This document shows positions 8,488-63,979 of a DNA stretch of 64,000 bases, piece after piece. A model generated the notes under the pieces. It had not been told where the DNA came from, did no database searches, and saw only the letters and a program-made list of their open reading frames with translations. How positions within the stretch are numbered: position 1 is the first letter of the stretch; every line of letters begins with the position of its first letter. The position numbers were made by a program, and so were the translations under genes. The DNA comes from Candidatus Nomurabacteria bacterium (GTDB lineage: Bacteria > Patescibacteriota > Minisyncoccia > Phycocordibacterales > UBA5272): the NCBI GenBank assembly GCA_037130925.1, contig JBAXSC010000001.1, positions 26,896 to 90,895 of the forward strand. Direction: 5' to 3'.

Positions 8488-8498
8488 TTTTTATTTTT

Positions 8499-9989
<1,491 letters not shown>

Positions 9990-12616: not shown

Positions 12617-12689
12617 GCGCGAATAGCTCAGCTGGTAGAGCACTCGACTGATACTCGAGCGGTCCTAAGTTCGAATCTTAGTTCGCGCA
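12617..12689 (+). tRNA. tRNA-Ile (anticodon GAU)
   Basis: Manual cloverleaf: acceptor gcgcgaa/ttcgcgc, D arm gctc-agctggta-gagc, anticodon arm ctcga-ctGATac-tcgag, T arm ctaag-ttcgaat-cttag. No encoded CCA. Confidence 0.9.
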
Positions 12690-12768
12690 CAAAATTGTGT
12701 CTATAAAAAAATAAAAACAGGTCAATCTTTCGATTAACCTGTTATTTAAATCTTTTAAGAATAAATTT

Positions 12769-13197
12769 TTAACAAATTTGTGGAATATTCATATTTAAAG
12801 CAATATGATCTTTCCAGAATTTTGTGTACATTTGATGTACTTTGATTACTTCTTGAGATTTATCTTCTATCATCTTTTTAAATGCTGCATCTTTTAATAT
12901 TAAGAATAAATGTATTTTTCCTAACATTATAACTTCGGCAATAAAAACCACTAGAAGATCTCCTGTACTTTCCTCTTCTACTTTGAATAGTTCTTCTAAG
13001 GAATTATGTCCAGGGAATTTATATTCATCATTACCAGACAACCTGAGTCTTTTAGACTCAAAAATCTCAACTGTATTTTTAAGTTTAAAACCATAGTTGT
13101 TTCTGTACTCTTCAGGAGAAAGAGGTTTTTGCATTTCAAGCAATCCGGAAGGATTTGCTTCTATTAGACTTTTAATACTTGCTTTTTGCTTTTCCAT
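12769..13197 (-). CDS. Hypothetical protein (ORFan) behind leader copy h
   Basis: ATG at 13197 (MEKQKASIK). The 15 upstream codons of the tracked ORF overlap the conserved leader hairpin and begin with TTG. Confidence 0.5.
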   Translation of the reverse strand: MEKQKASIKSLIEANPSGLLEMQKPLSPEEYRNNYGFKLKNTVEIFESKRLRLSGNDEYKFPGHNSLEELFKVEEESTGDLLVVFIAEVIMLGKIHLFLILKDAAFKKMIEDKSQEVIKVHQMYTKFWKDHIALNMNIPQIC

Positions 13198-13330
13198 TTT
13201 AAAATTTTTTGATTGTTTGTGAATTTGATTAACTTCTTTCAATTTCTATCAAGAAACTAAGAGAAGCTAATAAATAAAACAATTAAAATACGACTATATA
13301 TAATATATCATACTAAATATTATGTGTCAA
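13198..13330 (-). promoter_or_regulatory. Promoter plus structured leader module, copy h
   Basis: Minus-sense TTGACA - 17 nt - TATATT. Hairpin 13228-13271 has the loop tagtttcttgatagaaattg, identical to copy c. Outer helix attgttt/aaacaat. Confidence 0.6.
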
Positions 13331-13654: not shown

Positions 13655-13789
13655 TTTTAATAAATTTAATTTGTGAAAAATTCTAATAATAATTTATCAT
13701 ATAAAAGTATATGTGTCAATTGTTTTTTATAAATAAAAAACGGCTATAGATTTTTAGTTTATAACCGTTTTGTTTCAATTCGAACATTT

Positions 13790-17104: not shown

Positions 17105-18451
17105 ATGCCTGGATTTAAAATAACCGGTGGAAGAAAATTAAGAGGAAAAGTTAAAACGAATACTTCAAAAAATGGAGCTGTAAATATGATAGTGGCTGCA
17201 CTTTTAAACGATGGCGAAACAATTTTGCATCGTATTCCAAAAATTGAAGAAGTCTTTCGTTATATTGAAGTTGTGAGAAGTATAAATGTTGAAATAGATT
17301 GGGTAGATGAAAAAACAAAAGAGAAAGATGAAAATGGTACGAGTCTCAGAATTAAAATTAAAAAAGGTGGAATTAATGTAAAGAATTTAGATATCAAAAC
17401 AGCGAATATGATTCGCAGTTTCACTTTTGTTGGAGCTTTGATTCACGCACAAAAAAGTTTTTCTTGGCCTCATTCTGGTGGATGTAAAATGGGAGAGAGA
17501 ACTGTCGCTTCTCATAAATACGGATTAGAATATTTTGGTGTTGATATAAAGACGAAAGAAAATTCTTATGAAATTAAATCAAAATCTCTTCATCCTGCAG
17601 AGCTTATTCCTATGTATGAATCGAGTGATACAGGAGCTATTACCCTTCTCGTTGCTGCTAGTAAAATAAAAGGCGAGTCTGTTATTAAATTTGCCCCACC
17701 AAATTATCAAGTTCAAGATGTTTGTTTCTTATTAGAAAAATTCGGAGTAAATATTGAAGGTATAGGAACAAGTACTTTAAAAGTTCAAGGTTTAGAAAAA
17801 ATAAATTTATATGTAGAGCATTATAATTCTGAAGATCCTATTGACGCTATGTTTTTTATTTCTTCTGCGATTGTTACAAATTCAACTTTAACTATCACAA
17901 ATGCACCGATAGACTTCTTAGAGTTGGAGCTTGAAAAATTAAAACGTATGGGAGTTAAATTTGAATTAGGAAAAAAATATTTGAGTGATAATGGAAAGGC
18001 AAAATTAGTTGATATTAAAATTTTAGCAAGAAAAGAAGACGAGAAATTAATTGCTCCTCATGACAAGATTCATACAGGCGCATTCCCGGCAATAAATAAT
18101 GACAATCTTCCGTTCTTTGTGCCTATAGCCACACTTGCGGAAGGTATTACTCTTATTCATGATTGGACGTGGGAAAATAGAGCTATCTATTTTACAGAAT
18201 TAAATAGACTTGGCGGAGATCTTCGTCTGGCGGATCCACACAGAGTGTATGTGAATGGTGTTAAAGAATTAAAAGGTGCAGAAGTTGTTTGTCCTCCAGC
18301 TCTTCGTCCTGCGGCTATAATTTTAGTCGCTATGCTTTCTGCGAAAGGTGTTTCTATTTTGAGAAATGTCTATTCTATAAAGCGTGGATATGAAGGTATA
18401 GCAGAAAGGCTTAATAAAATAGGAGCAAAAGTAGAGGTTTTAAAAGACTAA
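17105..18451 (+). CDS. murA: UDP-N-acetylglucosamine 1-carboxyvinyltransferase
   Basis: FKITGGRKLRGKVKTNTSKNGAV, active-site loop SGGCKMGERTV, EPSP-synthase fold length. Confidence 0.9.
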   Translation: MPGFKITGGRKLRGKVKTNTSKNGAVNMIVAALLNDGETILHRIPKIEEVFRYIEVVRSINVEIDWVDEKTKEKDENGTSLRIKIKKGGINVKNLDIKTANMIRSFTFVGALIHAQKSFSWPHSGGCKMGERTVASHKYGLEYFGVDIKTKENSYEIKSKSLHPAELIPMYESSDTGAITLLVAASKIKGESVIKFAPPNYQVQDVCFLLEKFGVNIEGIGTSTLKVQGLEKINLYVEHYNSEDPIDAMFFISSAIVTNSTLTITNAPIDFLELELEKLKRMGVKFELGKKYLSDNGKAKLVDIKILARKEDEKLIAPHDKIHTGAFPAINNDNLPFFVPIATLAEGITLIHDWTWENRAIYFTELNRLGGDLRLADPHRVYVNGVKELKGAEVVCPPALRPAAIILVAMLSAKGVSILRNVYSIKRGYEGIAERLNKIGAKVEVLKD

Positions 18452-18835: not shown

Positions 18836-18910
18836 TCCGTGGTAGCTCAGCGGTAGAGCAGTTGGCTGTTAACCAATTGGTCGTAGGTTCGATCCCTACC
18901 CACGGAGCCA
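18836..18910 (+). tRNA. tRNA-Asn (anticodon GUU), CCA encoded
   Basis: Acceptor tccgtgg/ccacgga, anticodon arm gttgg-ctGTTaa-ccaat, T arm gtagg-ttcgatc-cctac, then gcca. Confidence 0.9.
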
Positions 18911-18994
18911 AATAATAGAAAAATCAGTCTCAAAAGGACTGATTTTTCTATTTGAAAATTTAGATAATTTTTGGTATATAATTTAATTATATAT

Positions 18995-19702
18995 ATGGAA
19001 TTTGGAAAATTTAATTTAAGTTTGAATAAAAAAGAAAAAGTTTATGATTATAAATATTTTACTAATAAAGAAAATAGAAAAAATATTTATGAGTTTGGTA
19101 AAGGCGTTACAGAATATTTACATAAAGAAAAAATAACAAATTTAATTCTTTTAGATAGATCGCCTAGACCTTTATGGGTTGCTGTAGATGAATATTGGAA
19201 AACTAATTATAAAGAAGAAAAAAGACCTGATATTTATTTTATTAATCCAGATGCTTTTAATAATCTAAATTCTTCTGGAATGGAAAGTTTTTTTAAAAAA
19301 CTTATTTACAGTTTGTCTGATACAAGTGAAAATGAAGAGCTTAATGAAGAATTTGATTCTATTTACAAAAAACTAGGAAATGAAAAAGATAAACCTTTAG
19401 CTATTTTTGATAATTGTATTCATTCTGGAGACACAATAGAGCCTGTTATAGATTTTTTAAAAGATTATGGTTTTAAAGATATTAGAATATTAATAGGAGA
19501 TACTTCTGCTAATTTTTCTTCTGTCAATATAGATAAATACTGTACTGACAATGCTATAGGTCTTTGTAGTGTATTTGGTAAAGATTTTGGTATTTATAAA
19601 GACAATGAAATTCTTTCTAAATATTATCCAACAGCAAATCGTGATAGGGTTGTACAGTCTCGTAAAGAAGTTAGACAGATAATTAGAGATAAGGGTAGAT
19701 AA
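18995..19702 (+). CDS. Phosphoribosyltransferase-like protein
   Basis: LAIFDNCIHSGDTIEP resembles the type I PRTase PRPP-binding loop. The rest is unrecognised. Confidence 0.45.
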   Translation: MEFGKFNLSLNKKEKVYDYKYFTNKENRKNIYEFGKGVTEYLHKEKITNLILLDRSPRPLWVAVDEYWKTNYKEEKRPDIYFINPDAFNNLNSSGMESFFKKLIYSLSDTSENEELNEEFDSIYKKLGNEKDKPLAIFDNCIHSGDTIEPVIDFLKDYGFKDIRILIGDTSANFSSVNIDKYCTDNAIGLCSVFGKDFGIYKDNEILSKYYPTANRDRVVQSRKEVRQIIRDKGR

Positions 19703-19711
19703 AATTATATA

Positions 19712-19859
19712 TTGACAAATACTTATTATTGTGATAGACTATATTTAGTTGTGTTTTGACGTATTTAAATTGAAAGGATTTAGGAAATCATTTTGTTTTT
19801 CAGTATTGGAAAATAAAATGATTTCCTTAATCTATTATTTAATTTAAAATGTTTTTAAA
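19712..19859 (+). promoter_or_regulatory. Promoter plus structured leader module, divergent copy a
   Basis: TTGACA - 17 nt - TAGACT. 12-bp hairpin ggaaatcatttt/aaaatgatttcc at 19783-19826. Outer helix tttaaatt/aatttaaa. Confidence 0.45.
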
Positions 19860-20441
19860 ATGAAAAGTTTATTTGTCAGTTTATTTTGTATTTTTTCTTT
19901 ATTTTCCTGTAAAACGAAAATTGTTTTACCTGAGAATTTTAGCGATTCAGTAAAAGTTGTTAAGATAGTTAATCATTTAGATAGTCTTACTCTTGTAAGT
20001 CATTTAAATATTGATATGGGGTATTGGTACCACTCTCAGAGGATAATATATATTAATGACTTAAGTTTTTTAGAAATGTCACTGATTCAATCAGATAATA
20101 ATTACCATATAGGTGATAATTTTTCCTGGGGGTTTACAGTAAGTCGTATATGGGTTTACCAAGGTAAATGTTATATAACTACATTTGCTGACGGAGACAA
20201 GAACGGAATACCAGATTGTATTATTGAAAATGAATATGTTAATTTCAAATACAAACCTAATAAAAATTTGTTGGATTATTTTAATACTTATGACAGTATT
20301 AAAGAAGTAATGCCTGTGATTAAATTTAAAGATTTGTCTACAGGTAAACAAAAAACTTATCAGTATGAGTATTCTGAAATCTTAGAAACAATTAAAGAAA
20401 AGCAAGATTCTATTAAAAAAGCAAAGTGGCAAAAAGATTAG
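19860..20441 (+). CDS. Putative lipoprotein (ORFan)
   Basis: MKSLFVSLFCIFSLFSC signal peptide with lipobox. Confidence 0.55.
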   Translation: MKSLFVSLFCIFSLFSCKTKIVLPENFSDSVKVVKIVNHLDSLTLVSHLNIDMGYWYHSQRIIYINDLSFLEMSLIQSDNNYHIGDNFSWGFTVSRIWVYQGKCYITTFADGDKNGIPDCIIENEYVNFKYKPNKNLLDYFNTYDSIKEVMPVIKFKDLSTGKQKTYQYEYSEILETIKEKQDSIKKAKWQKD

Positions 20442-20460
20442 CTTTTTTAAAATGTTTGGA

Positions 20461-20499
20461 AGTCCGGTCTAATTTTTGACCGGACTTTTTATTTTTTTT
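20461..20499 (+). terminator. Intrinsic terminator
   Basis: agtccggtc/gaccggact stem followed by a T run. Confidence 0.7.
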
Positions 20500-20611
20500 A
20501 TACATAGTGATATAGGGTGTGGGGTATATTATCCTTTCATTATTTCTATTCCTTTTTTATTATTCTAAAATAGATAGTAAAGTAAAATTTTAAGTGCTAT
20601 ACTCCAACCGT

Positions 20612-21613
20612 ATGGAAAAATACGAACACCCCTTTAGTTGGAAATCTCTTATTCGTATTACTGTTCTAGGAATTGTAGTTTTTCTTTGCTGGAGACTTTT
20701 ATCAGTACTTTCTATTATTATCCTCGCTTATGTTTTAACGGTAGCTTTTTATCCAGTTGTCAAAACAATTCAGAACAAAACAAAAATACCTCTTCTTTTA
20801 TGTATTTTTTTTATTTTAGTCATTCCTTTTATTTTGTTTTTTATTTTAGGATTAATTTTTATTCATCGTATCATTCTAGAGGCACCAGTTTTATTATCTA
20901 GTATTAATTCTGTTATTGTTAATTCCTCAATGATTCCAGATTTTTTGAAAAATTTCAGTCTTATTTCATATATTCAATCTCATCTTGATTATGCTACCGC
21001 TACTGTGAATGTTACGGTTATAGTATTTGACGTGATCACTACTATTATTTTAACTTTTTTCTTAATATACGATTTTGAAAGATTATTTGAGTTGTCTTTA
21101 CATCTTGTTCCTGGTAGAGAAAGAGATAAAATTAAAGATCTGTTAAAAGAAATTACTTTTGTTATAGGTAAATATATTCGTGGCAATTTACTAATTTCAG
21201 TCATTTGTGGAACTATTTTGTTTCTTGGTCTTACTATTTTACATGTGTCTTTTGCTTTACCGTTGGCTATTTTTGCTGCTGTTATAGATTTACTACCATT
21301 GGTAGGGGGAACTATCGGTGCTATCCCTGCGGTCATAATAGGTTTTGGTGTCTCACCCTTAACAGGTATTTTAGTTTTAATTTTACATCTTATATATCAA
21401 CAAGCAGAAAATGCTATTATATCTCCGATGATTTATAATAAAGCGCTAAATCTTTATCCTTCTGTTATATTTTTATCAGTTCTGATCGGGGGAAGTTTGT
21501 TTGGTATTCTTGGAGCTTTTCTTTCTCTTCCGATTGCCGCAAGTATTCCGGTGATAATTGAGTATCATAAGAATTATAAAATAAGAGACAATCAAATCCA
21601 AAAAATGAATTAG
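20612..21613 (+). CDS. AI-2E family transporter (PerM/UPF0118)
   Basis: 8 TM helices with the typical family C-terminal pattern. The ATG at 20612 lies 8 nt after TGCTATACT. Confidence 0.7.
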   Translation: MEKYEHPFSWKSLIRITVLGIVVFLCWRLLSVLSIIILAYVLTVAFYPVVKTIQNKTKIPLLLCIFFILVIPFILFFILGLIFIHRIILEAPVLLSSINSVIVNSSMIPDFLKNFSLISYIQSHLDYATATVNVTVIVFDVITTIILTFFLIYDFERLFELSLHLVPGRERDKIKDLLKEITFVIGKYIRGNLLISVICGTILFLGLTILHVSFALPLAIFAAVIDLLPLVGGTIGAIPAVIIGFGVSPLTGILVLILHLIYQQAENAIISPMIYNKALNLYPSVIFLSVLIGGSLFGILGAFLSLPIAASIPVIIEYHKNYKIRDNQIQKMN

Positions 21614-21699
21614 TTTATTTTGTTTTGGTAAGTGGTATTGTTTTCTTGTTTCTCTTTAATTATGTTTTTTCTAACATTGTTTCATGTTTTGAACAAAGC

Positions 21700-21828
21700 T
21701 TTACAAATATTTATTAATATATTAGTATATATTCAGTCGTATTTGTTATCTTTTATTAAGTCATCTTTGTTTCTTTATGGAATTAGAGATGGCTTAATAA
21801 ATATTTATAACAATTTAAACATTTTACA
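21700..21828 (+). promoter_or_regulatory. Promoter plus structured leader module, copy b
   Basis: TTTACA - 17 nt - TAGTAT. Hairpin 21753-21800 (ttattaagtcatct/agatggcttaataa). Loop ttgtttctttatggaatt. Confidence 0.6.
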
Positions 21829-22245
21829 ATGGAAGAGTTAATTATTCTGTTAGAGAAATTAGGTTTTTCTAAAAAAGAAGATTATCAAGAACCGAAAGGG
21901 GTTGTTGGTGATGATGAAAAAATCATAGGAGAAATGATTGATGTTGAAAAACATCTTTACACCGTTTTAGAGTTTTGTGACAAGAAAGCAGCTGAATTAA
22001 TAACAGAATTATCTGTATTATCAGCCAAAAGTAGAAGCCGCACAACTGAAAAGAAGATGGAAAAGATTTTCGAAACTCTTGAAAATCTAAAATTTACAAG
22101 AAAGGTAGCTAGTCCTCTTTTATGGTTTTCTATAAAAAATAGATTAAAACCACCAAGGACTAAGAGTTTAGCTTTCAGGGGTTTTAAGGTTGTTGAAATG
22201 TCAACTAAAGATTTTATTACTTTTACAATTTCTACTAAGTGGTAA
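21829..22245 (+). CDS. Hypothetical protein (ORFan cassette gene)
   Basis: ATG directly after leader b and terminator directly after the stop. Confidence 0.5.
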   Translation: MEELIILLEKLGFSKKEDYQEPKGVVGDDEKIIGEMIDVEKHLYTVLEFCDKKAAELITELSVLSAKSRSRTTEKKMEKIFETLENLKFTRKVASPLLWFSIKNRLKPPRTKSLAFRGFKVVEMSTKDFITFTISTKW

Positions 22246-22268
22246 TTATAGGTTAAGAGGGAAATAGG

Positions 22269-22300
22269 GCAGGTCGGTCTTAGTATCGGCCTGTTTTTTT
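22269..22300 (+). terminator. Intrinsic terminator with a CUUAGU loop
   Basis: caggtcggt/atcggcctg stem (with G-U pairs), loop cttagt, T7 run. Confidence 0.7.
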
Positions 22301-22308
22301 ATTTATTT

Positions 22309-22455
22309 TTGACAAATACAACTGAATATATTAGTATGTATTCAGTTGTATTTTACGTATTTTAATTGTTGTCTTTATTAAGTTCTCTTAGTTTCTTGAT
22401 AGAAATTGAGAGAACTTAATAAATAATTTTAAATAACAATTAAATTTTACATTAG
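22309..22455 (+). promoter_or_regulatory. Promoter plus structured leader module, copy c (best exemplar)
   Basis: TTGACA - 17 nt - TAGTAT. 12-bp perfect inverted repeat 22317-22328 / 22339-22350 brackets the -10. P1 22362-22370 / 22435-22443. P2 hairpin 22375-22422. Confidence 0.65.
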
Positions 22456-22839
22456 ATGAGAGTTAATATAAGTATTTTTAAAGAAAGTCCTATAAATTAT
22501 ATAGGAGTAATTTATATAACCGGTAAAAAAGTATGTCATTATAAGTTATTGATTAATCTTCCTATTGAAGAAATCAAAGTTATGCTTATACCAAATACTG
22601 AAGAATCTTTATTAAAATTAGCTGTAGACTTATTTCAGTTTACAGTATTAAAAGATAAAGAAGTAATTGTGATAGATGAAGATTTGTTTTTATTTCTTGT
22701 TGGCCTTATAGTCGATAAAGTTATAGAGCTTTTTGATTTTGAAAACAAACTTCCGGTTTCAGGATTGAAAAAAATTTCTTCACTCATGATATTTTCTTTT
22801 GAAGTTGATAAGATTCCAGAATCTTTATTTTTACATTAG
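22456..22839 (+). CDS. Hypothetical protein (ORFan cassette gene)
   Basis: ATG after leader c, followed by a terminator. Confidence 0.5.
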   Translation: MRVNISIFKESPINYIGVIYITGKKVCHYKLLINLPIEEIKVMLIPNTEESLLKLAVDLFQFTVLKDKEVIVIDEDLFLFLVGLIVDKVIELFDFENKLPVSGLKKISSLMIFSFEVDKIPESLFLH

Positions 22840-26726: not shown

Positions 26727-26753
26727 TTTCTTATCTTTTAGATATTAAAAAAT

Positions 26754-26783
26754 AAAACCAGTATTTTTACTGGTTTTATTTTT
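26754..26783. terminator. Terminator of the aaaaccagt/actggtttt family
   Basis: 9-bp stem plus T run. 33 nt are identical to 31300-31332. Confidence 0.7.
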
Positions 26784-29891: not shown

Positions 29892-29985
29892 TTGATAAAT
29901 ATGACTGAATATATTCAGACATATTTTAGTTGTTGTATTTTATTAATTTCTTGATGGGGGTTGAGGGAAGTTAGTTAAATTTATT
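29892..29985 (+). repeat. Degenerate leader-module remnant (copy g) with no downstream ORF
   Basis: TTGATA, then a 14-nt perfect palindrome ctgaatatattcag with no -10 between the arms, tttagttgttg, and a weak hairpin around tttcttgatggggg. Confidence 0.4.
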
Positions 29986-31274: not shown

Positions 31275-31302
31275 GTTTTACTTATTAATTTATAAAAAAA
31301 AT

Positions 31303-31332
31303 AAAACCAGTATTTTTACTGGTTTTATTTTT
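31303..31332. terminator. Terminator, identical copy of the one at 26754
   Basis: Same aaaaccagt-attttt-actggtttt sequence. Confidence 0.7.
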
Positions 31333-31344
31333 TTTATTTAACTT

Positions 31345-32285: not shown

Positions 32286-32409
32286 TGTTTTTGGTTTTGT
32301 CTCAATATATGTTAATTTTATTAGAATTATTTTCTAAACTATTTTACTTGACAAATAAAACAGTATATGATATACTCTTATTAGTTTTTAATTATTAAAA
32401 TCATTTATC

Positions 32410-32682: not shown

Positions 32683-32763
32683 TAAGTTGCTTTTGTTTTA
32701 TTCTGAGCTGTGCCTATTTATTTAGGCGCAGTTTTTTTATTTTTAAATAAAAATAAAAGGAGC

Positions 32764-33300
32764 TTAAAATAAGCTCCTTAAAAAATTGATTAATGTGTTC
32801 AATAAAAACGCAGAGGGAGTCAGGGCAATAGTGGACATTATCACACTCATTAGAAAATATATTTTAATTTTCCAACCTTTCATACCGTCATATAAATAGA
32901 ATCCTTTTCTAAAATATATAACAAATATTGACGGGTCCCAACTCAGTAATACTAAAAGAAGTAAAACTTTTCCTGATACTTTTCCTCCCATTTTTAATAA
33001 CTTTGTTATTTTTTTTGTGGCTAGACTATTATCTTTTTCATCTAATTCCAGATTTTCGAATTTTGCTTTTTTGAAAGCTTCGATTGAAAACCAGTCATCT
33101 TTAAAATAGTCATATAGTTTAATTCCTATATAAAAAGCTATTAAAGAAGTAACAGACATTATTTTTATTGTTAATAAATAATTTCCTGTATGGTGAGTTA
33201 GATACAAAAACATTATAGTTGTAGGACCATTTATAGCACGATTAATCAAAAATTTTTTTAAAAAAGAATTCTTTTTGATTTCTGTTTCCAATTTGTACAA
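32764..33300 (-). CDS. Hypothetical membrane protein (start uncertain, TTG)
   Basis: 4 hydrophobic helices. Confidence 0.4.
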   Translation of the reverse strand: MYKLETEIKKNSFLKKFLINRAINGPTTIMFLYLTHHTGNYLLTIKIMSVTSLIAFYIGIKLYDYFKDDWFSIEAFKKAKFENLELDEKDNSLATKKITKLLKMGGKVSGKVLLLLVLLSWDPSIFVIYFRKGFYLYDGMKGWKIKIYFLMSVIMSTIALTPSAFLLNTLINFLRSLF

Positions 33301-33386: not shown

Positions 33387-33533
33387 TTGACTTAATTTAT
33401 CAAATATGCTAGACTATATATAGTTATAAATTCTTTGATATTTTAATTTGATTGTTATTTTGTTTAGATCTTTTAGTTTCTTTATGGAGATTAAAAGATC
33501 TAAATAAATATTTTTTAACAACAAATCAATTTT
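33387..33533 (+). promoter_or_regulatory. Promoter plus structured leader module, copy d
   Basis: TTGACT - 17 nt - TAGACT (with TGC). Hairpin 33463-33504 (tttagatctttt/aaaagatctaaa). Loop agtttctttatggagatt. Confidence 0.6.
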
Positions 33534-33971
33534 ATGAATTCATTAAATGTAAGTCAGTTATTAGGGGTATTAGAAATATCTTTAATGTTATCATTAGTTT
33601 TCTTTATTTTTTTATATTTTAGAAATAAAGATATAAAAGTGAAATTAAAAAAAGCAGAGGAAAACCTGGGTAGACCGTGTCTTTTAAAGGAAGTTGCGGT
33701 AAAAATCTTTAATTTGTTTGATGATAGTAAACCTTCGAATATTTTCTATCTTAATTCTTGTGTTTTAAGCAAAAAGAGCGAAGAAGATAAAGAATTTACT
33801 TATTTCAAACATGGAACAGGATTAATTTCTAATCCTGATTATAAATACAGTCCTATTTATACAGAATTACTATTTAAATTTGAAGAAATAATTGAACCTG
33901 ATTCGTTATATATTTTAAGATATGACGAAAGTATTCAGAAAAATTATTTGGAAAAGGTTAAAACTTCTTAA
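33534..33971 (+). CDS. Hypothetical protein with an N-terminal TM helix (ORFan)
   Basis: ATG after leader d, followed by hairpins and a T run. Confidence 0.5.
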   Translation: MNSLNVSQLLGVLEISLMLSLVFFIFLYFRNKDIKVKLKKAEENLGRPCLLKEVAVKIFNLFDDSKPSNIFYLNSCVLSKKSEEDKEFTYFKHGTGLISNPDYKYSPIYTELLFKFEEIIEPDSLYILRYDESIQKNYLEKVKTS

Positions 33972-35698: not shown

Positions 35699-35702
35699 AA
35701 AT

Positions 35703-35728
35703 AAAAACCAGTAAATTTACTGGTTTTT
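35703..35728. terminator. Bidirectional terminator of the aaaaaccagt/actggttttt family
   Basis: Palindrome between convergent genes. Confidence 0.7.
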
Positions 35729-35754
35729 ATTTAATATATTTTTATTTTTAAAAA

Positions 35755-45661: not shown

Positions 45662-45822
45662 AATTTTAAAGTTTTAATCCAAATAAATTGAATTCTTTAA
45701 TAAAATAAATTATAAAGATGTATTAATTTTAACATACAATTTTAAATATTGACAAATATATTTAATTATGCTATACTGATATTAGTAGTTAATTAAATTT
45801 TAAATTATATAAATCTTCAGTC

Positions 45823-47903: not shown

Positions 47904-48818
47904 ATGAGTATAAATCGACATTTAGCTAGAGGTATTGTTCTTCAAATTCTTTTTGAATTGGATGTTAATGGTAATTTAAACATTCATAAAGAAGAACTTG
48001 AAAAGATGATTCAAAGACAAATAGAAGAATTCGCAGAAGGTTCTGATGATGGATTTATTTTAAATCTTTTAACTATAATTCAAGAAAGAGTTGCTACTCT
48101 TGATGATATTATTTCTCGTGCAGCGCCAGAATGGCCACTTGATAAGATTAATACAATGGATAGAAATATTCTTCGTCTCGGTCTAGCTGAGCTCTTATTT
48201 AACAGTGAGGTTGTTCCACCTAAAGTTGCTATTGATGAGGCTATTGAGCTAGCAAAGAATTACAGTAGTGTAAATTCGCATAAATTCGTAAATGGGGTAC
48301 TCGGATCAATATATAAAGAAATGGGCGAACCTAGAAAAGAAGAATCTAGTCAAAAAAAAAATAATTTAGCGACTTTGAATCTTGCTGGAGGACTTGTCTA
48401 TTCTGTATATGAGGGAAGGGTATTTATAGCTTTCGTAAAAGATATTTTTAAACACTGGACTTTACCAAAAGGTAAATTAATGGAAGACGAAGATATTCGT
48501 GTCGGAGCCGTTAGAAAAATAAAAGAAGAAATTGGATTAAATGCTGTGATTAAAGACAAACTTTCAGAAAATACTTATGTGGCAAATGCATCAGCAAATC
48601 CAAATGAAGAAAAGAAAGAGAAAGTTAAAAAACATGTTTATTATTTCTTAGCTGAAGCAAAACATGAGCCTTTAGTTTTAGAAAAAGAAAATACTGGATT
48701 AACAGAGGCAAAATGGTTTTCACTTGATCAGATAGAAGAATTGAAGACTTATGATGATATAAAGCCGATAATTGCTGCCGGACTCGAAAAGATAAATGAG
48801 AATTATGACAGAAAATAA
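47904..48818 (+). CDS. nusB: NusB antitermination factor fused to a C-terminal Nudix hydrolase domain
   Basis: N-terminal RHLARGIVLQILFELD...AIDEAIELAKNYS...FVNGVLG (NusB). C-terminal GKLMEDEDIRVGAVRKIKEEIGL fits the Nudix box GX5EX7REUXEEXGU with one E-to-K change. Confidence 0.75.
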   Translation: MSINRHLARGIVLQILFELDVNGNLNIHKEELEKMIQRQIEEFAEGSDDGFILNLLTIIQERVATLDDIISRAAPEWPLDKINTMDRNILRLGLAELLFNSEVVPPKVAIDEAIELAKNYSSVNSHKFVNGVLGSIYKEMGEPRKEESSQKKNNLATLNLAGGLVYSVYEGRVFIAFVKDIFKHWTLPKGKLMEDEDIRVGAVRKIKEEIGLNAVIKDKLSENTYVANASANPNEEKKEKVKKHVYYFLAEAKHEPLVLEKENTGLTEAKWFSLDQIEELKTYDDIKPIIAAGLEKINENYDRK

Positions 48819-49554
48819 TATTAAAAAATATACTAAAAAAGACAAAGACTCAAATCAAGAGAAAGATTTTGCTGTGCTTGAAAAGCAGCTTGATCTAAAT
48901 TTTAATAATAAAAATTTATTGATACAAGCTTTTATTCATAGATCATATATCAATGAGAGTGCTGGTGTAAAATTTGGACATAATGAAAGATTGGAATTTT
49001 TAGGAGATGCTGTACTGGAATTGGTTTCTACAAATTATCTCTATCATAAATTTCAAGATTTAGCGGAAGGTGAATTGACTGCTTATCGTGCTGCACTTGT
49101 GAATACGAAATCTATCAGTGGTATCGCGAGAGATCTTGGTTTTAATGATTATTTATTTTTATCAAAAGGTGAAAGTAAAGATTTTGGAAAAGCGAGACTT
49201 TCTATTTTGGCTGATACTTATGAATCATTTATAGGTGCAATATTTTTAGATAAAGGATATGATTTTGCAAAAGATTTTATAGAAAAGACTTTGCTTATTC
49301 ATACTGATAAAGTTATAGAAGAAGGAAAATATAAAGATGCGAAATCTATTGTTCAAGAAAAGGCTCAAGATATATTATCTGTCACACCGAGCTATCGTGT
49401 AGTCTCAGAATCGGGTCCAGATCATGATAAAAAATTCATAATAGCAATATATTTTGGTGAAGAAAAAAATGCAGAAGGTGAAGGAAGAAGTAAGCAGGAG
49501 GCAGAGACTGATGCTGCAAAGAATGCTTTGATAAAAAAAGAGTGGGATAAGTAA
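48796..49554 (+). CDS. rnc: Ribonuclease III
   Basis: ERLEFLGDAVLELV signature and a C-terminal dsRBD. Overlaps the nusB-nudix stop by 14-23 nt. Confidence 0.9.
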   Translation: MRIMTENNIKKYTKKDKDSNQEKDFAVLEKQLDLNFNNKNLLIQAFIHRSYINESAGVKFGHNERLEFLGDAVLELVSTNYLYHKFQDLAEGELTAYRAALVNTKSISGIARDLGFNDYLFLSKGESKDFGKARLSILADTYESFIGAIFLDKGYDFAKDFIEKTLLIHTDKVIEEGKYKDAKSIVQEKAQDILSVTPSYRVVSESGPDHDKKFIIAIYFGEEKNAEGEGRSKQEAETDAAKNALIKKEWDK

Positions 49555-51342: not shown

Positions 51343-51627
51343 TTAGAAATTTCTTCTTGGTCTCTCTTCTCTCTTTTCCATAGGACGAGCTAGGTTTACA
51401 GTAAGATTTCTTCCCATAAATTCTTTCTCGTTGAACATTGAGATAGCTTTGTTTGCTCCTTCAGCTGTTGCCATTTCTACGAAACCGAATCCTTTTGAAC
51501 GGTGAGTCATTTTATCCATGATGATCATAGCATCTTTGACTTCTCCTGCTTCGCTAAATAGTTTTTTTAAATCCTCAGCTGTTGATGAGTAAGGAATACC
51601 ACCAACGTATAATTTATTTTCTTGCAT
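51343..51627 (-). CDS. RRM-type RNA-binding protein
   Basis: RNP2 LYVGGI and RNP1 KGFGFVEM motifs. Confidence 0.85.
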   Translation of the reverse strand: MQENKLYVGGIPYSSTAEDLKKLFSEAGEVKDAMIIMDKMTHRSKGFGFVEMATAEGANKAISMFNEKEFMGRNLTVNLARPMEKREERPRRNF

Positions 51628-59880: not shown

Positions 59881-59909
59881 TTGACTTAATATTTATTATG
59901 TTATATAAT
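59881..59909 (+). promoter_or_regulatory. pncB promoter
   Basis: TTGACT - 17 nt - TATAAT. Confidence 0.6.
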
Positions 59910-59925
59910 AAATTTAAATAATAAT

Positions 59926-59988
59926 ATTTTTGAAACAGAATTTTGTCTAGAAAAGATTGAATTATAGACAGAATTCTGTTTCAAAAAT
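59926..59988 (+). promoter_or_regulatory. 24-nt-arm inverted repeat holding two 12-bp palindromes in the pncB leader
   Basis: Arms 59926-59949 and 59965-59988 match at 23 of 24 positions. ACAGAATTTTGT at 59935-59946 and the perfect palindrome ACAGAATTCTGT at 59968-59979. Confidence 0.55.
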
Positions 59989-60039
59989 AGAAACAGTCGC
60001 TCTTTGTATTATATTAATTAACATTTAAAATTTATTCAG

Positions 60040-61395
60040 ATGAATTATTTTAGAAATTCAGAAGTTCATGAAGTTGCTGATAAAATTTACAACAATCTTC
60101 ATTCTACAAATTTTGTATCGCCAATACAAAATTTAACTGATGTGGACTTTTACAAGTTTACAATGGGACAGTTTATTTTTAGATTCTATCCAGAAGTGGA
60201 GGTTAAATTTAAATTAATTATTAGAGACAAAAAGATTTCTTTAGTAGAAAGAATCGTTTCTGATGAAAAATTTAAAGATGAACTTTTCCAGTCTTTGGAT
60301 TATATCTCCTCGTTACGTTTTCGTAAAACAGACATGTTTTACCTTAGAGGTATGGATCTCTATGATAAGAATATGTTTAAGAACGATTATTTGAACTTTT
60401 TGGGAAATTTAACTTTGCCAAAGTTAAGTCCAAAAATTGGATTTAATACCTTCGATCTTGGTATTGAGGGGCTGTGGAGTGAAAATAGTCACTGGGAGAC
60501 TATTGCAATGGCGACCATCACTGAGCTTTATTATAGAAGCATGATGAGAGACATGTCTGAGCAAGAAGTCCATGATATGTATGTAATCTCTAATAACAGA
60601 TTGCAAAATATGTTATTAGAGATTAAAAAAAATCCGAGTATTTCATTTTCTGACTTCGGTCAGAGAAGGAGAAATTCTTTTCTTTGGCAGGATTATGTTG
60701 TGAAAGAATGTAAAAGAGTTTTAGGTGGTCAATTTGTTGGCACGTCTAATACTTATTTAGCATTTAAACATGACTTAGTTCCGATCGGAACCAATGCTCA
60801 TGAGCTTCCAATGGTAGCTACCGCTCTTGCGGTAGGAGATAAAGCTAAAAGAAACGCTCAATATGCCATTCTTAAACAATGGCAGAAAGTTTATGGAAAA
60901 GGTTTGAGGATTATTCTTCCAGACACTTTTGGATCAGAGCAGTTTTTTAAAAATGCGCCAGATTGGGCGTCTAACTGGATCGGGCAAAGGCAAGATTCTG
61001 GTGATCCTATTGCAGAAGGGGAAAGATATAAAGCCTGGCTTTCAGGTAAAGGTATTAATCTGCTAGAAAGGAAAACTATTTTTTCAGATGGGCTAGATAT
61101 TTCACCAATGAAAGATATTACTTCTCATTTTCATGGTAATCATCAAGCGTCCTTTGGTTGGGGAACATTGTTGACCAATAACTTCGCCGACACTGTTCCT
61201 GGTAATGAAAATTTTAGACCATTCTCAATGGTTGTGAAAGTTTCAGAAGCTAGAAGCAATATTGGTAGTGAGTGGAATCCTTGTGTTAAGCTTTCTAACA
61301 ATATTGAAAAGGCCACAGGTACTCCAAGTGCTATAAAAGACTATATTAGAATCTTTGGCGATTCTGGTAGGGTAGATCAGCAAGTAGTGGTTTAA
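60040..61395 (+). CDS. pncB: Nicotinate phosphoribosyltransferase
   Basis: TDVDFYKFTMGQ, GTNAHELPM, ~450 aa. Confidence 0.88.
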   Translation: MNYFRNSEVHEVADKIYNNLHSTNFVSPIQNLTDVDFYKFTMGQFIFRFYPEVEVKFKLIIRDKKISLVERIVSDEKFKDELFQSLDYISSLRFRKTDMFYLRGMDLYDKNMFKNDYLNFLGNLTLPKLSPKIGFNTFDLGIEGLWSENSHWETIAMATITELYYRSMMRDMSEQEVHDMYVISNNRLQNMLLEIKKNPSISFSDFGQRRRNSFLWQDYVVKECKRVLGGQFVGTSNTYLAFKHDLVPIGTNAHELPMVATALAVGDKAKRNAQYAILKQWQKVYGKGLRIILPDTFGSEQFFKNAPDWASNWIGQRQDSGDPIAEGERYKAWLSGKGINLLERKTIFSDGLDISPMKDITSHFHGNHQASFGWGTLLTNNFADTVPGNENFRPFSMVVKVSEARSNIGSEWNPCVKLSNNIEKATGTPSAIKDYIRIFGDSGRVDQQVVV

Positions 61396-62637: not shown

Positions 62638-62719
62638 GCCCAGGTGGCGGAATTGGTATACGCGCTAGTCTTAGGAACTAGTGGAGAAATCCTTGGAGGT
62701 TCAAGTCCTCTCCTGGGCA
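62638..62719 (+). tRNA. tRNA-Leu (anticodon UAG), long variable arm
   Basis: Acceptor gcccagg/cctgggc, anticodon arm ctagt-ctTAGga-actag, variable arm tggagaaatccttg, T arm with ttcaagt loop. Confidence 0.88.
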
Positions 62720-62777
62720 CAATGAAATAAAAATATCCTTAAATAATAAGGGTATTTTTATTTATTAATAATCATAC

Positions 62778-62947
62778 TTGACAAATAATCACTATTATGC
62801 TACACTATATATAGTGATTAGTTGTTTTAAAATTTCATATATTTTAATTAAATATATTAAATACTTTTGTGAGTCATTATAGTTTCTAATGACATTTAGT
62901 GATTATAATGACTTACAAAACATTTATTAATTATTAATTTATTTATT
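62778..62947 (+). promoter_or_regulatory. Promoter plus structured leader module, copy f
   Basis: TTGACA - 17 nt - TACACT (with TGC). Inverted repeat aatcactat/atagtgatt brackets the -10. Hairpin 62866-62919 with loop agtttctaatgacatttagtgatt. Confidence 0.55.
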
Positions 62948-63376
62948 ATGAAAATTTCATTGTCAAAAGCAAATTTAGTAGGAGAAAAAATCAAACAGGA
63001 TCTAATAGATGCTAAAAACACTATTATTTATGGAGTGAAAAATTGGAAACAAACCATAAAAAAAGAGTTGAAACATTTATTAAATTTTACCCTGTTAATA
63101 GCAGGATTGATTTATATATTTCATATCCTTTCTGTGATTTTTGTTAATACTCTGGCAGATTTTGATTCGGTAAGCTGCTTGATTTTAAGAGTAGATTACT
63201 TATTAACAAAAGATCTGGTAAGCACACCTATTCAATGTGTAGCAACAGGGGTAGTATCTATAGTTGTTGTTTATATGTTTAATCTAATCTATAGGATACT
63301 TAAAACAGATTTTCTGAGATTGGTATTTATGCTTTTATTTTATTTTGTTTTAGTTTTTATTACTAATAATCTTTAA
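62948..63376 (+). CDS. Hypothetical membrane protein (ORFan cassette gene)
   Basis: 3 TM helices, between leader f and a terminator. Confidence 0.5.
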   Translation: MKISLSKANLVGEKIKQDLIDAKNTIIYGVKNWKQTIKKELKHLLNFTLLIAGLIYIFHILSVIFVNTLADFDSVSCLILRVDYLLTKDLVSTPIQCVATGVVSIVVVYMFNLIYRILKTDFLRLVFMLLFYFVLVFITNNL

Positions 63377-63404
63377 TAATTATTTACTAAAGATTATAAG
63401 TTAT

Positions 63405-63438
63405 ACAGGTCTGTCTTAGTTGATGGACCTGTTTTTTA
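63405..63438 (+). terminator. Intrinsic terminator with a CUUAGU loop
   Basis: acaggtctgt/atggacctgt stem (with G-U pairs), loop cttagttg, T6 run. Confidence 0.7.
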
Positions 63439-63473
63439 TTAGAAATTTATAGTTTAAAAATTATTAATCATGT

Positions 63474-63607
63474 TTGACAAATAATAGTGAATATATTAGG
63501 ATATGTTCAGATGTTTTTAATTGTTTTTGTTGATTTCTTTTAGTTTCTAATTAAAGATATTAAAAGAAGTTAACAAATTTATTTACAATTAAATTAAAAG
63601 TTTAAAT
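63474..63607 (+). promoter_or_regulatory. Promoter plus structured leader module, copy e
   Basis: TTGACA - 17 nt - TAGGAT. Hairpin 63529-63574 (gttgatttctttt/aaaagaagttaac with G-U pairs). Loop agtttctaattaaagatatt. P1 ttaattgt/acaattaa. Confidence 0.6.
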
Positions 63608-63979
63608 ATGGAAAAAGGAAATAGTATTGCAGAAAAATTATACTCTTTTTTTGAAGAAAAATTCGGTATACCAAATACTGAAGTTCTTAATCTTAATGAG
63701 AATCAGCCTAAAATGATGTTAGTAGATCTTGGACTTAAGAAAAAGACGGAAAAAAATAGTTGGACTATTATTTACGAATTGCATTCTGGTGGAGGTTTTG
63801 TTTTAGGAGAAAACTGGCGCACAAATGGATGTTCTTGGTCAAGATTCCTTGTTATTAAAAATAATGAAGATTTTGATCTGGTTAAAATTACTAATAGCAT
63901 GATCTCGGATCCATTTTGTAATTTTGAGACTTTAAAATTTGTTTTTTTAGCTCTTAGAGAATTTTCTTTTGATCTTTAA
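63608..63979 (+). CDS. Hypothetical protein (ORFan cassette gene)
   Basis: ATG after leader e. Confidence 0.5.
   Translation: MEKGNSIAEKLYSFFEEKFGIPNTEVLNLNENQPKMMLVDLGLKKKTEKNSWTIIYELHSGGGFVLGENWRTNGCSWSRFLVIKNNEDFDLVKITNSMISDPFCNFETLKFVFLALREFSFDL

Follow-up and report, generated by a model that had tools for sequence, protein, structure and literature searches.

A stretch of 64,000 nucleotides from a Candidatus Nomurabacteria genome (assembly GCA_037130925.1, contig JBAXSC010000001.1, positions 26,896 to 90,895; hereafter the window) contains seven full copies and one decayed copy of a repeated module in which a promoter and a structured 5' leader precede the start codon of a small gene without recognisable relatives (ORFan). 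A preliminary description, made from the sequence alone, had proposed such a recurrent module in front of unrelated ORFan genes, and this proposal was borne out by our analysis. The leader folds into a rod with a hairpin of constant length, and it is very probably an RNA of the sense strand that is maintained by selection on its structure. The leader family appears to be new, as does its tie to strain-specific ORFan cassettes in a lineage that initiates translation without Shine-Dalgarno (SD) pairing.

The eight copies lie at the coordinates first given for them and have the sequences described, seven of them being full and one (g) decayed, and every stem quoted in the preliminary description was verified. 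The copies aligned as one family across ~150 nt (alignment A1). A hidden Markov model (HMM) built from A1 matched exactly these eight copies (nhmmer; E 5e-27 to 8e-17) and detected no further site in the 64-kb window. In searches of both strands with filters off, a covariance model of the leader alone (R1) gave the seven full copies 48–82 bits and the remnant g 22 bits (E 0.2), and no other site in the window scored above 25 bits. One match of 24.7 bits, at 32706–32797, was rejected as a copy, being a pair of terminator hairpins between convergent genes. When the folds were compared with those of dinucleotide shuffles, each full copy had a z-score of -4.1 to -8.6 and none of 200 shuffles was as good, whereas remnant g (z-score -0.85) was not better than its shuffles. 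Because the HMM, the covariance model and the fold z-scores all single out the copies, the repeat family is real and not a chance product of AT-richness.

The anatomy of the leader can be read from copy c (22309–22455, plus strand). A sigma-70-type promoter, TTGACA(AATA), 17 nt, TAGTAT, at 22309–22337 is followed by an 'AG' start context at ~22346–22347. In the minimum free energy fold, the 5' strand of an outer helix, P1 (UUUUAAUUGUUG; 22361–22372; p=0.007 in the flank duplex test), leads to a hairpin of 23 bp, P2 (22374–22423), whose lower stem varies among copies and whose apical helix AGUUUCU/AGAAAUU includes a G·U pair and carries the loop UGAU. The 3' strand of P1 (the UAACAAUUAAAA region; 22433–22444) ends 11 nt before the AUG.

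The same plan was recognised across the family, which for the following comparisons includes copies from other Patescibacteria assemblies (designated L009, L020, L024, L028 and L166 and described below). As read from the sequences, a U-rich 5' segment of ~17–52 nt runs from the start site to P2, and the rod then begins. P1 is an AU-rich helix of 6–12 bp, typically ATTGTTa/tAACAAT, that closes an asymmetric internal loop below P2. P2 has 23 bp in all copies, and this length is fixed, since both of its arms align without a gap in 11 of 11 copies (alignment A2). The lower 14–16 pairs of P2 are variable and are followed by a weak U·G or U·U position and then by an apical 7-bp helix, AGUUUCU/RGARAUU, which is conserved together with its G·U pair. 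The preliminary description had reported a conserved apical region with a conserved loop. The helix is indeed conserved, and a 26-nt apical stretch (TCTCTTAGTTTCTTGATAGAAATTGA) is identical in c and h, but the loop varies in both length (4–10 nt) and sequence (UUGAUA, UUUAUG, UAAUUAAAG and others). Below the conserved G·U pair there are 18 bp in 7 of the 10 copies measured, the exceptions being h with 15 bp, L024 with 17 bp and a with 20 bp. Between the end of P2 and the AUG there are 20–32 nt (10 copies measured), a spacing less variable than that between start site and P2. In four copies (a, c, d and L028), P1 with its extensions approaches the AUG to within 2–10 nt. In a duplex-versus-shuffle test, P1 was statistically clear in a, c and L028 (p≤0.01) and in L024 (p=0.04), and it was weak in d (p=0.08).

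Alignment A2 comprised 11 copies, seven from the window and four from the other Patescibacteria assemblies, and thus 253 cells for the 23 pairs of P2. Standard pairs occupied 95.7% of these cells, as compared with 78.1±1.5% after column shuffling (none of 500 shuffles reached the observed value) and with at most 56% when the partners were slid out of register. Changes on both sides were found in 15 of the 23 pairs against a shuffled mean of 6.3, and again none of 500 shuffles reached 15, in agreement with the covariation of P2 that had been claimed at the outset. G·U combinations outnumbered A·C combinations in P2 by 34 to 4 (binomial p 6e-7) and occurred in 11 columns as against 4, and one G·U pair (columns 43/64) was kept in 10 of 11 copies. 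Furthermore, the sense hairpin was more stable than its reverse complement by 2.7–12 kcal/mol in all 11 copies, and the covariance model scored the sense strand 30–40 bits above the antisense strand. Because such asymmetry is not to be expected of a palindrome in DNA (the end of a transposon, for example, or an operator bound by a protein), the comparison of sequences indicates that P2 is a structured RNA of the mRNA strand. Copy g, the only one with no open reading frame (ORF) behind it, has lost both its -10 hexamer and its pairing, which is consistent with selection that operates only as long as mRNA is produced. We consider a sense-strand RNA leader under structural selection to be highly probable.

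The remaining copies differ in detail. Copy a (19712–19859, plus strand) has P2 at 19779–19830 and the most diverged apical helix (GUUUUUC/GGAAAAU). Copy b (21700–21828, plus strand) has the promoter hexamer TTTACA and P2 at 21752–21801. Copy d (33387–33533, plus strand), with the hexamer TTGACT, has P2 at 33459–33508 and an outer UUUGAU/AUCAA pairing that extends to 4 nt before the AUG. Copy e (63474–63607, plus strand) has P2 at 63526–63577. Copy f (62778–62947, plus strand) begins 58 nt after tRNA-Leu (62638–62720) and has a longer 5' segment, P2 at 62865–62920 and no clear P1. Copy h (13198–13330), on the minus strand, has the promoter TTGACAcata and P2 at 13274–13225. Remnant g (29892–29985, plus strand) has a mutated -10 hexamer and a degraded stem, and it is not followed by an ORF.

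The promoter architecture that had been attributed to the module was found in each full copy, and an independent scan recovered promoter-like hexamers at 19712, 21700 and 22309; however, this architecture is not confined to the module. Genes with short, hairpin-less leaders are immediately preceded by an exact TTGACA-N17-TAnnnT site in three further cases, namely at 32348 (plus strand, before a 90-aa ORF), at 45749 (plus strand, before a 165-aa ORF) and at 13719 (minus strand, before a PspC-domain ORF). These promoters and those of the copies have in common an extended -35 element (TTGACAAATA or TTGACACATA), a TG-extended -10 element and a 'tTAG(T)' start context. Because hairpin-less genes have the same consensus, the promoter of the copies is the general strong-promoter consensus of the genome, and the leader is the module-specific part. 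The canonical promoter lies 17–52 nt upstream of P2 in every full copy and the gap between P2 and the AUG is too short for another promoter; P2 would thus be transcribed from the promoter in front of it.

Perfect inverted repeats were also observed to straddle the -10 hexamer of several promoters: in copy c (22314–22328/22339–22353; 15 bp), in copy f (62786–62795/62811–62820; 10 bp), in copy e (63487–63495/63500–63508) and at one of the hairpin-less promoters (45760–45768/45790–45798; 9 bp). The half-sites TGAATA-N10-TATTCA are common to the promoters of c, e, b and g, and the arm sequences vary among promoters. Since the left arm falls in the untranscribed spacer, these repeats are a DNA-level feature, perhaps an operator or a cruciform.

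The genes behind the seven full copies are small. Copy a precedes a lipoprotein-like ORFan of 193 aa (19860–20441), copy b one of 138 aa (21829–22245), copy c one of 127 aa (22456–22839; NCBI tag WCO35_00260), copy d one of 145 aa with an N-terminal hydrophobic segment (33534–33971), copy e one of 123 aa (63608–63979) and copy f one of 142 aa (62948–63376), all on the plus strand; the ORFan of copy h, also of 142 aa, is on the minus strand (12769–13197, ATG at 13197), and its stop codon is 79 nt from tRNA-Ile (12617–12690). None of the seven proteins gave a Pfam or PADLOC family. An all-against-all blastp comparison (nine-sequence database) yielded nothing better than E 0.18, and hidden paralogy among the ORFans was rejected on this ground. 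No homologue of protein c was found among 5.8 billion proteins, and protein a had one remote homologue, of 25% identity, among 1.84 billion representatives. Taken together, these searches upheld the claim that the downstream ORFans are unrelated. An AlphaFold2 model of protein h had a pLDDT of 40 and was unusable.

Intrinsic terminators at 20458–20489 (copy a) and 22266–22297 (copy b) close the preceding cassettes, and therefore each unit consists of promoter, leader, ORF and terminator. The behaviour of such a unit was seen by comparison of relatives. The L009, L020 and L166 loci have the same neighbour genes (glutaredoxin, tRNA-Arg and a 102-aa protein) as the loci L155, L164 and L165. In L009, ~365 bp consisting of promoter, leader, a 41-aa lipoprotein ORF and terminator lie between the tRNA gene and the promoter of the 102-aa gene; in the relatives the cassette is absent and the sequence runs directly from the tRNA gene to that promoter. 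The boundaries of the insertion are outside the hairpin, ~95 nt upstream of it, and comparison with L155, L164 and L165 revealed no direct repeat flanking the insertion. Because the insert comprises promoter, leader, ORF and terminator, the whole cassette is the unit that is gained or lost between these relatives, with junctions outside the hairpin.

Cassettes also adjoin tRNA genes. In the window, h lies by tRNA-Ile (the whole cluster at 12617–13330), a, b and c follow tRNA-Asn (cluster at 18836–22839), and f and e follow tRNA-Leu (cluster at 62638–63979); elsewhere, in L009 (7919–7478, minus strand) and L166 (84–594), the cassette comes directly after tRNA-Arg(CCT). A rough estimate for three of five clusters lying within 1 kb of one of four tRNA genes was ~0.015, and the association is suggestive only. 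A gene for a tyrosine recombinase (L028 2507–3622) is situated 1.1 kb downstream of the L028 copy.

Some further observations were made at these tRNA loci. In L165 (1240–1433), the tRNA gene between the glutaredoxin gene and the 102-aa gene appears to be interrupted by an insertion in the D-arm region that carries what is apparently a second complete tRNA. In L164 (9785–9955), the tRNA gene at the position of tRNA-Arg(CCT) of L009 and L166 appears to be interrupted by a GC-rich insertion. Group I introns in Patescibacteria tRNA genes have been reported (PMC13011429). A near-identical 130-aa protein with HNH-like Cys/His motifs, recognised by eye, flanks the cassette locus in both L009 (6674–7066) and L020 (4781–5173). 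Its occurrence in metagenome-assembled genomes (MAGs) labelled Saccharibacteria and Nomurabacteria, respectively, suggests a shared mobile region or mis-binning.

The relatives outside the window were obtained in three ways. Species-representative genomes were scanned once with a promoter-plus-apex pattern, which gave 27 loci, mostly chance matches; nhmmer and R1 confirmed three of them as true relatives, all in Patescibacteria MAGs (L024 in Ca. Paceibacteria, L009 in a genome labelled Saccharibacteria and L020 in Ca. Nomurabacteria). A metagenome scan added L028, of which L030 is an identical duplicate, and a protein-guided look-up added L166. These copies have the same layout before other unrelated small genes (a 165-aa lipoprotein, the 41-aa lipoprotein and a 186-aa soluble protein), and their stems differ yet stay complementary. 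In ~80 kb from further relatives (L032, L033, L155–L165 and L167), no copy of the motif was detected. Relatives with 71–89% MurA identity were available on contigs of 2.5–5 kb only, and the one such close relative examined, L032, had no copy of the leader on its contig. The motif is thus lineage-restricted and patchy.

A 34-bit match in L164 (1986–2083) was rejected as a member of the family, being a different, GC-rich palindromic element. This element, TATACCCCCACACCTA…TAGGTGTGGGGGTATA, was observed in L009 (7452–7395, minus strand), where it lies within the -10 region belonging to the 102-aa gene, has TATA on both sides and is absent at the corresponding L155 site, and in L164 (2017–2050), just upstream of leuS. 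It looks like a miniature inverted-repeat transposable element (MITE) with TA(TA) target duplication.

Searches for known relatives of the leader were negative. No Rfam 15 family matched it at the gathering threshold, and at E values up to 10 the region 19650–22500 gave only miRNA-like hairpins over P2, with 17–29 bits against thresholds of 50–100; the leader therefore corresponds to no named riboswitch or leader family in Rfam, as the preliminary description had supposed. Blastn against phage and plasmid collections returned one AT-rich chance match and nothing else. In viral contigs, the strict pattern and the two-arm pattern gave no match, a loose apical pattern gave 120 loci of which nhmmer confirmed none, and a 'master' arm pattern gave 17 matches, all of them inside conserved phage coding sequence, where the covariance model scored nothing. 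A phage or plasmid origin was rejected, as neither the collections nor the viral-contig scans contained a confirmed copy. In the full-text literature, no such motif was found described in Patescibacteria or the Candidate Phyla Radiation (CPR).

The setting in which the leader is translated is unusual. The 16S rRNA gene occupies 8492–9989, and its 3' tail (9971–9989) reads GGTCGTAGATTAATTCAATT instead of GGATCACCTCCTTA, so that the rRNA ends in …GGUCGUAGAUUAAUUCAAUU as compared with the usual …GGAUCACCUCCUUA and the anti-SD sequence CCUCC has been lost. An SD-like motif at the usual distance was missing from all 62 gene starts. These two results support the earlier suggestion that the organism lacks SD-based initiation. 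The sequence upstream of the genes is rich in A from -20 to -3, and 61% have T at position -1. An alternative SD sequence was considered and rejected: no k-mer complementary to the altered 16S tail (…GAUUAAUUCAAUU) was enriched upstream of genes, and neither AAUUAA, present in 3' strands of P1, nor AAUUGA, present in some of the apical stems, is conserved from copy to copy. Loss of the anti-SD sequence has been reported for a Parcubacteria subgroup (PMC9297842). Because there is no SD pairing, initiation should depend on an unstructured A-rich region and be sensitive to structure near the AUG.

One further gene in the window was observed to have a long leader hairpin. The leader of the nicotinate phosphoribosyltransferase (NAPRTase; pncB-like) gene, which starts at 60040, contains an unrelated perfect hairpin of 25 bp (59925–59989; fold z-score -5.9) behind the promoter TTGACT-N17-TATAAT (59881–59909; region 59881–60039), and this hairpin has no Rfam match. 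Other 5' leaders of this genome may also contain long perfect hairpins.

The best explanation for the leader, to which we would give an even chance, is that the rod acts as a cis-acting element of post-transcriptional control and is read by a double-stranded RNA (dsRNA)-binding factor, for which RNase III is the leading candidate. In order of decreasing support, the rod would be such a control element, which is the best-supported step; a dsRNA-binding protein would recognise the conserved apical helix; the protein would act on the stem at a fixed distance, most likely through RNase III cleavage of the two-turn duplex; and through such a cut the 5' strand of P1 would come away, the start region would become accessible, and translation and half-life of the mRNA would be determined. 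Cleavage in P2 would put the two P1 strands on separate fragments and expose a monophosphorylated 5' end, and the common leader would put newly acquired, unrelated genes under one control. A conserved G·U helix that tops a sequence-free stem of two fixed turns, at a constrained distance from the AUG, is the arrangement to be expected if a protein were to dock at the apex and act on the duplex. On this evidence, a trans-acting dsRNA-binding factor that reads the leader is neither favoured nor disfavoured in our judgement, and its identification with RNase III is a tentative proposal that we hold to be somewhat doubtful.

Two helical turns of perfect duplex are approximately the minimal size of an RNase III substrate. 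P2 offers a duplex of 23 bp that is often extended by P1, and the window encodes an RNase III with a catalytic domain and a dsRNA-binding domain (48796–49554, plus strand; Pfam PF14622, PF00636 and PF00035). A gene for a NusB-NUDIX fusion (47904–48818) was observed to overlap the start of the RNase III gene by 23 nt, and a 94-aa RNA-binding protein with an RRM domain is encoded at 51343–51627 (minus strand), 1.8 kb downstream of the RNase III gene. RNase III and the 94-aa protein are both conceivable partners of the leader.

Hairpin leaders as a kind are already known, and the present leader would work like known ones. A duplex of about two turns in the 5' leader is found in RNase III targets such as the early R sites of phage T7, lambda N and E. 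coli rnc, pnp and adhE, where cleavage can free a start region occluded by the base of the stem. A conserved end element over a sequence-free stem of fixed length resembles the 'ruler' by which yeast Rnt1p measures AGNN-capped stems. The leader has no sequence similarity to these hairpins, and the known examples serve single genes whereas the leader is common to many ORFans; moreover, bacterial RNase III is, to our knowledge, not known to need an apical sequence. The coat-protein operators of MS2 and PP7 and lambda boxB are comparable in having a short conserved helix and loop near the start codon, whose sequence and shape are recognised, with flanking pairs free to covary. They are, however, hairpins of 7–10 bp whose loop bases are read by the protein, whereas in the leader the loop varies and the conserved G·U helix stands atop a further 14–16 bp.

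Several points weigh against control by a dsRNA-binding factor or against the strength of the structural evidence. We infer the transcription start (from promoter geometry only), the trans-acting factor and the direction of the effect. P1 was proposed as a covarying outer helix; it is conserved in sequence (ATTGTTa/tAACAAT) and AU-rich, has no covariation support, was not significant by the duplex-versus-shuffle test in f, h and the L009 group, and is absent in f. The sequences are few (11–12), L009, L020 and L166 are orthologues, and c, L024 and L028 have nearly the same stem, so that independent compensatory events are fewer than the cell counts suggest; the shuffle control likewise ignores the relatedness of the copies. 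RNase III is a housekeeping enzyme, and its presence is weak evidence for a role here. The patchy distribution of the motif means that a dedicated conserved partner is not implied, and a hairpin of great stability could exert a purely passive effect, with no partner involved.

This last point leads to what we regard as an unlikely rival, namely a structural leader without a trans-acting partner, in which the rod would hold the upstream leader in a single, highly stable fold and would serve as an insulator that keeps the A-rich start region unpaired or as a block to 5'-to-3' decay and would give newly inserted genes reliable expression in a cell without SD pairing. The great stability and near perfection of the hairpins, the constrained distance between hairpin and AUG, the reliance of the genome on unstructured A-rich start regions and the unrelatedness of the genes served would all suit such a role, as would the unrelated perfect hairpin before the housekeeping NAPRTase gene. 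A passive leader, however, needs no conserved apical helix, no G·U pair kept in 10 of 11 copies and no fixed 23-bp length across genomes; the rod of a, c, d and L028 runs on into the start region instead of freeing it; and the hairpin, at 17–52 nt from the inferred 5' end, is too far away for the classical effect of a 5'-terminal stabiliser, an argument of distance whose basis is the 5'-end dependence of RNase E and RNase J. Sensing by the RNA itself, as a riboswitch for a ligand, an RNA thermometer or a transcription attenuator, deserves little credence. The leader is a conserved structured 5' untranslated region (UTR), its AU-rich P1 pairings near the start region could melt with temperature, and a simple scan flagged P2 of copy c as terminator-like. 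The preliminary description had allowed for binding by a ligand or a protein. Protein binding is plausible, but a simple, unbranched and near-perfect rod without a junction, bulged pocket or conserved unpaired nucleotides, and with variable loop and internal-loop sequences, argues against a small molecule, and the genes served share no function or pathway. A thermometer would need a much weaker helix than P2, whose stability is -18 to -28 kcal/mol. As for attenuation, U runs begin 5–8 nt after the stem rather than 0–2 nt after it and are absent in h, L024 and a; the stems of P2 are AU-rich and are followed by AAUAAAUA..., whereas true terminators of the window look different; and no alternative anti-terminator pairing was seen. 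No Rfam riboswitch or leader family matches, as noted above.

Two other rivals would place the function in DNA. The nearest precedent for the proposed control by RNase III, and also the model for the first of these rivals, is the Correia element of Neisseria (Correia repeat enclosed element, CREE, or NEMIS), which supplies sigma-70 promoters and a 5' UTR hairpin that is bound or cleaved by RNase III, altering the expression of adjacent genes (PMC2649163). Like the module, CREE is a dispersed unit of ~100–155 bp with a promoter and an inverted repeat, is found upstream of many unrelated genes and varies in its presence among strains (PMC2649163). A Correia-like miniature mobile element, that is, a transposing DNA palindrome with an outward promoter whose inverted repeats form the hairpin, would also agree with the presence or absence of cassettes among relatives and with the separate MITE-like, TATA-flanked palindrome TATACCCCCACACCTA..TAGGTGTGGGGGTATA in the same lineages (L009 and L164). 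We nevertheless consider it very unlikely. CREE hairpins are the conserved terminal inverted repeats of transposon-like DNA with TA target sites and a conserved core, whereas 15 of 23 stem positions of the leader differ yet pair, and decaying transposon copies lose complementarity; the excess of G·U over A·C and the greater stability of the sense strand are RNA-type asymmetries not expected of DNA inverted repeats. In addition, CREE promoters are at the ends of the element, whereas that of the leader is upstream of the hairpin; the orientation is always co-directional with the gene; the L009 insert is promoter, leader, ORF and terminator together and not the repeat alone; no flanking direct repeats or target duplications were evident at the copies (read by eye, not searched systematically) or at the L009 insertion; and no transposase or integrase was recognised among the window proteins that were scanned. 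A recombination site of single-stranded DNA, folded like the attC site of integrons, at which a recombinase would take up or swap ORFan cassettes, often by tRNA genes, is in our view scarcely credible. In attC sites, which are imperfect palindromes, the ends and the structure are conserved and the complementary middle is variable, the structure is strand-specific, and the cassettes served are promiscuous and often ORFans. The leader shares these traits; its cassettes are gained and lost as units and are clustered beside tRNA genes (h, a-b-c, f-e and the L009/L166 cassette), a tyrosine recombinase is encoded 1.1 kb downstream of the L028 copy, and folded single-stranded DNA would tolerate G·T wobble too. 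Whereas attC sites follow promoterless cassettes on their 3' side, in an array that adjoins intI, the leader precedes each ORF, with the promoter before it and the start codon after it, and each cassette has its own promoter and terminator. The copies are dispersed among core genes and not arrayed, and no integrase was recognised among the proteins scanned in the 64-kb window. The base of the leader, ATTGTTa...tAACAAT, reads GTT...AAC and has on either strand the order opposite to the RYYYAAC...GTTRRRY of attC, and the boundaries of the L009 insertion fall ~95 nt upstream of the hairpin.

The module is embedded in an otherwise ordinary chromosomal region. The window has a G+C content of ~28%, one unlinked 16S rRNA gene and four tRNA genes, and all other Rfam 15 families were below the gathering threshold. 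It encodes SecDF, a Mur ligase, Ddl, alanine racemase, MurA, pyruvate kinase, DnaE, the NusB-NUDIX fusion, RNase III, NadE and NAPRTase, and the proteins scanned in the window included none from an integrase, transposase or phage gene. A bidirectional terminator-like hairpin, AAAACCAGTA-tttt-TACTGGTTTT with A and T runs on its flanks, was observed three times at gene ends (26748–26783, 31292–31337 and 35699–35732) and is a second repeated intergenic module of the window. With regard to MurA (17105–18451), the proteins of the window genome and its closest relatives (71–100% identity) have 448–459 aa, and nearly all the more distant Patescibacteria homologues (at most 67% identity) have ~505 aa, with an N-terminal HTH_3/HTH_31 domain fused to MurA (homologues P0009 to P0120 were compared).

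Gene regulation is almost unknown in the Patescibacteria, or CPR, a largely uncultured group, and the leader is a rare candidate regulatory RNA with good covariation. It is specific to strain-unique ORFans, which make up a large share of the unexplained coding capacity of Patescibacteria genomes, and its covariance model can be used to tag co-regulated accessory genes in metagenomes. Action of RNase III or another dsRNA-binding protein on a stem of fixed length is a concrete and testable prediction. A wider and rather improbable extension is that promoter and rod form a lineage-specific 'plug-and-play' expression adaptor of Patescibacteria without SD pairing, which would either accompany ORFans that are newly acquired or newly born, and that insert preferentially beside tRNA genes, or be grafted onto them, and would be read at AGUUUCU/RGARAUU by a dedicated RNA-binding partner; the strain-specific accessory proteome would then be one post-transcriptional regulon, switched on, for example, at contact with a host cell. 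The leader may show how mRNA structure near the start codon serves control in a lineage without SD pairing, and the cassette format of promoter, leader, ORF and terminator, moving beside tRNA genes, possibly points to the way in which new genes gain the means of expression in very small genomes.

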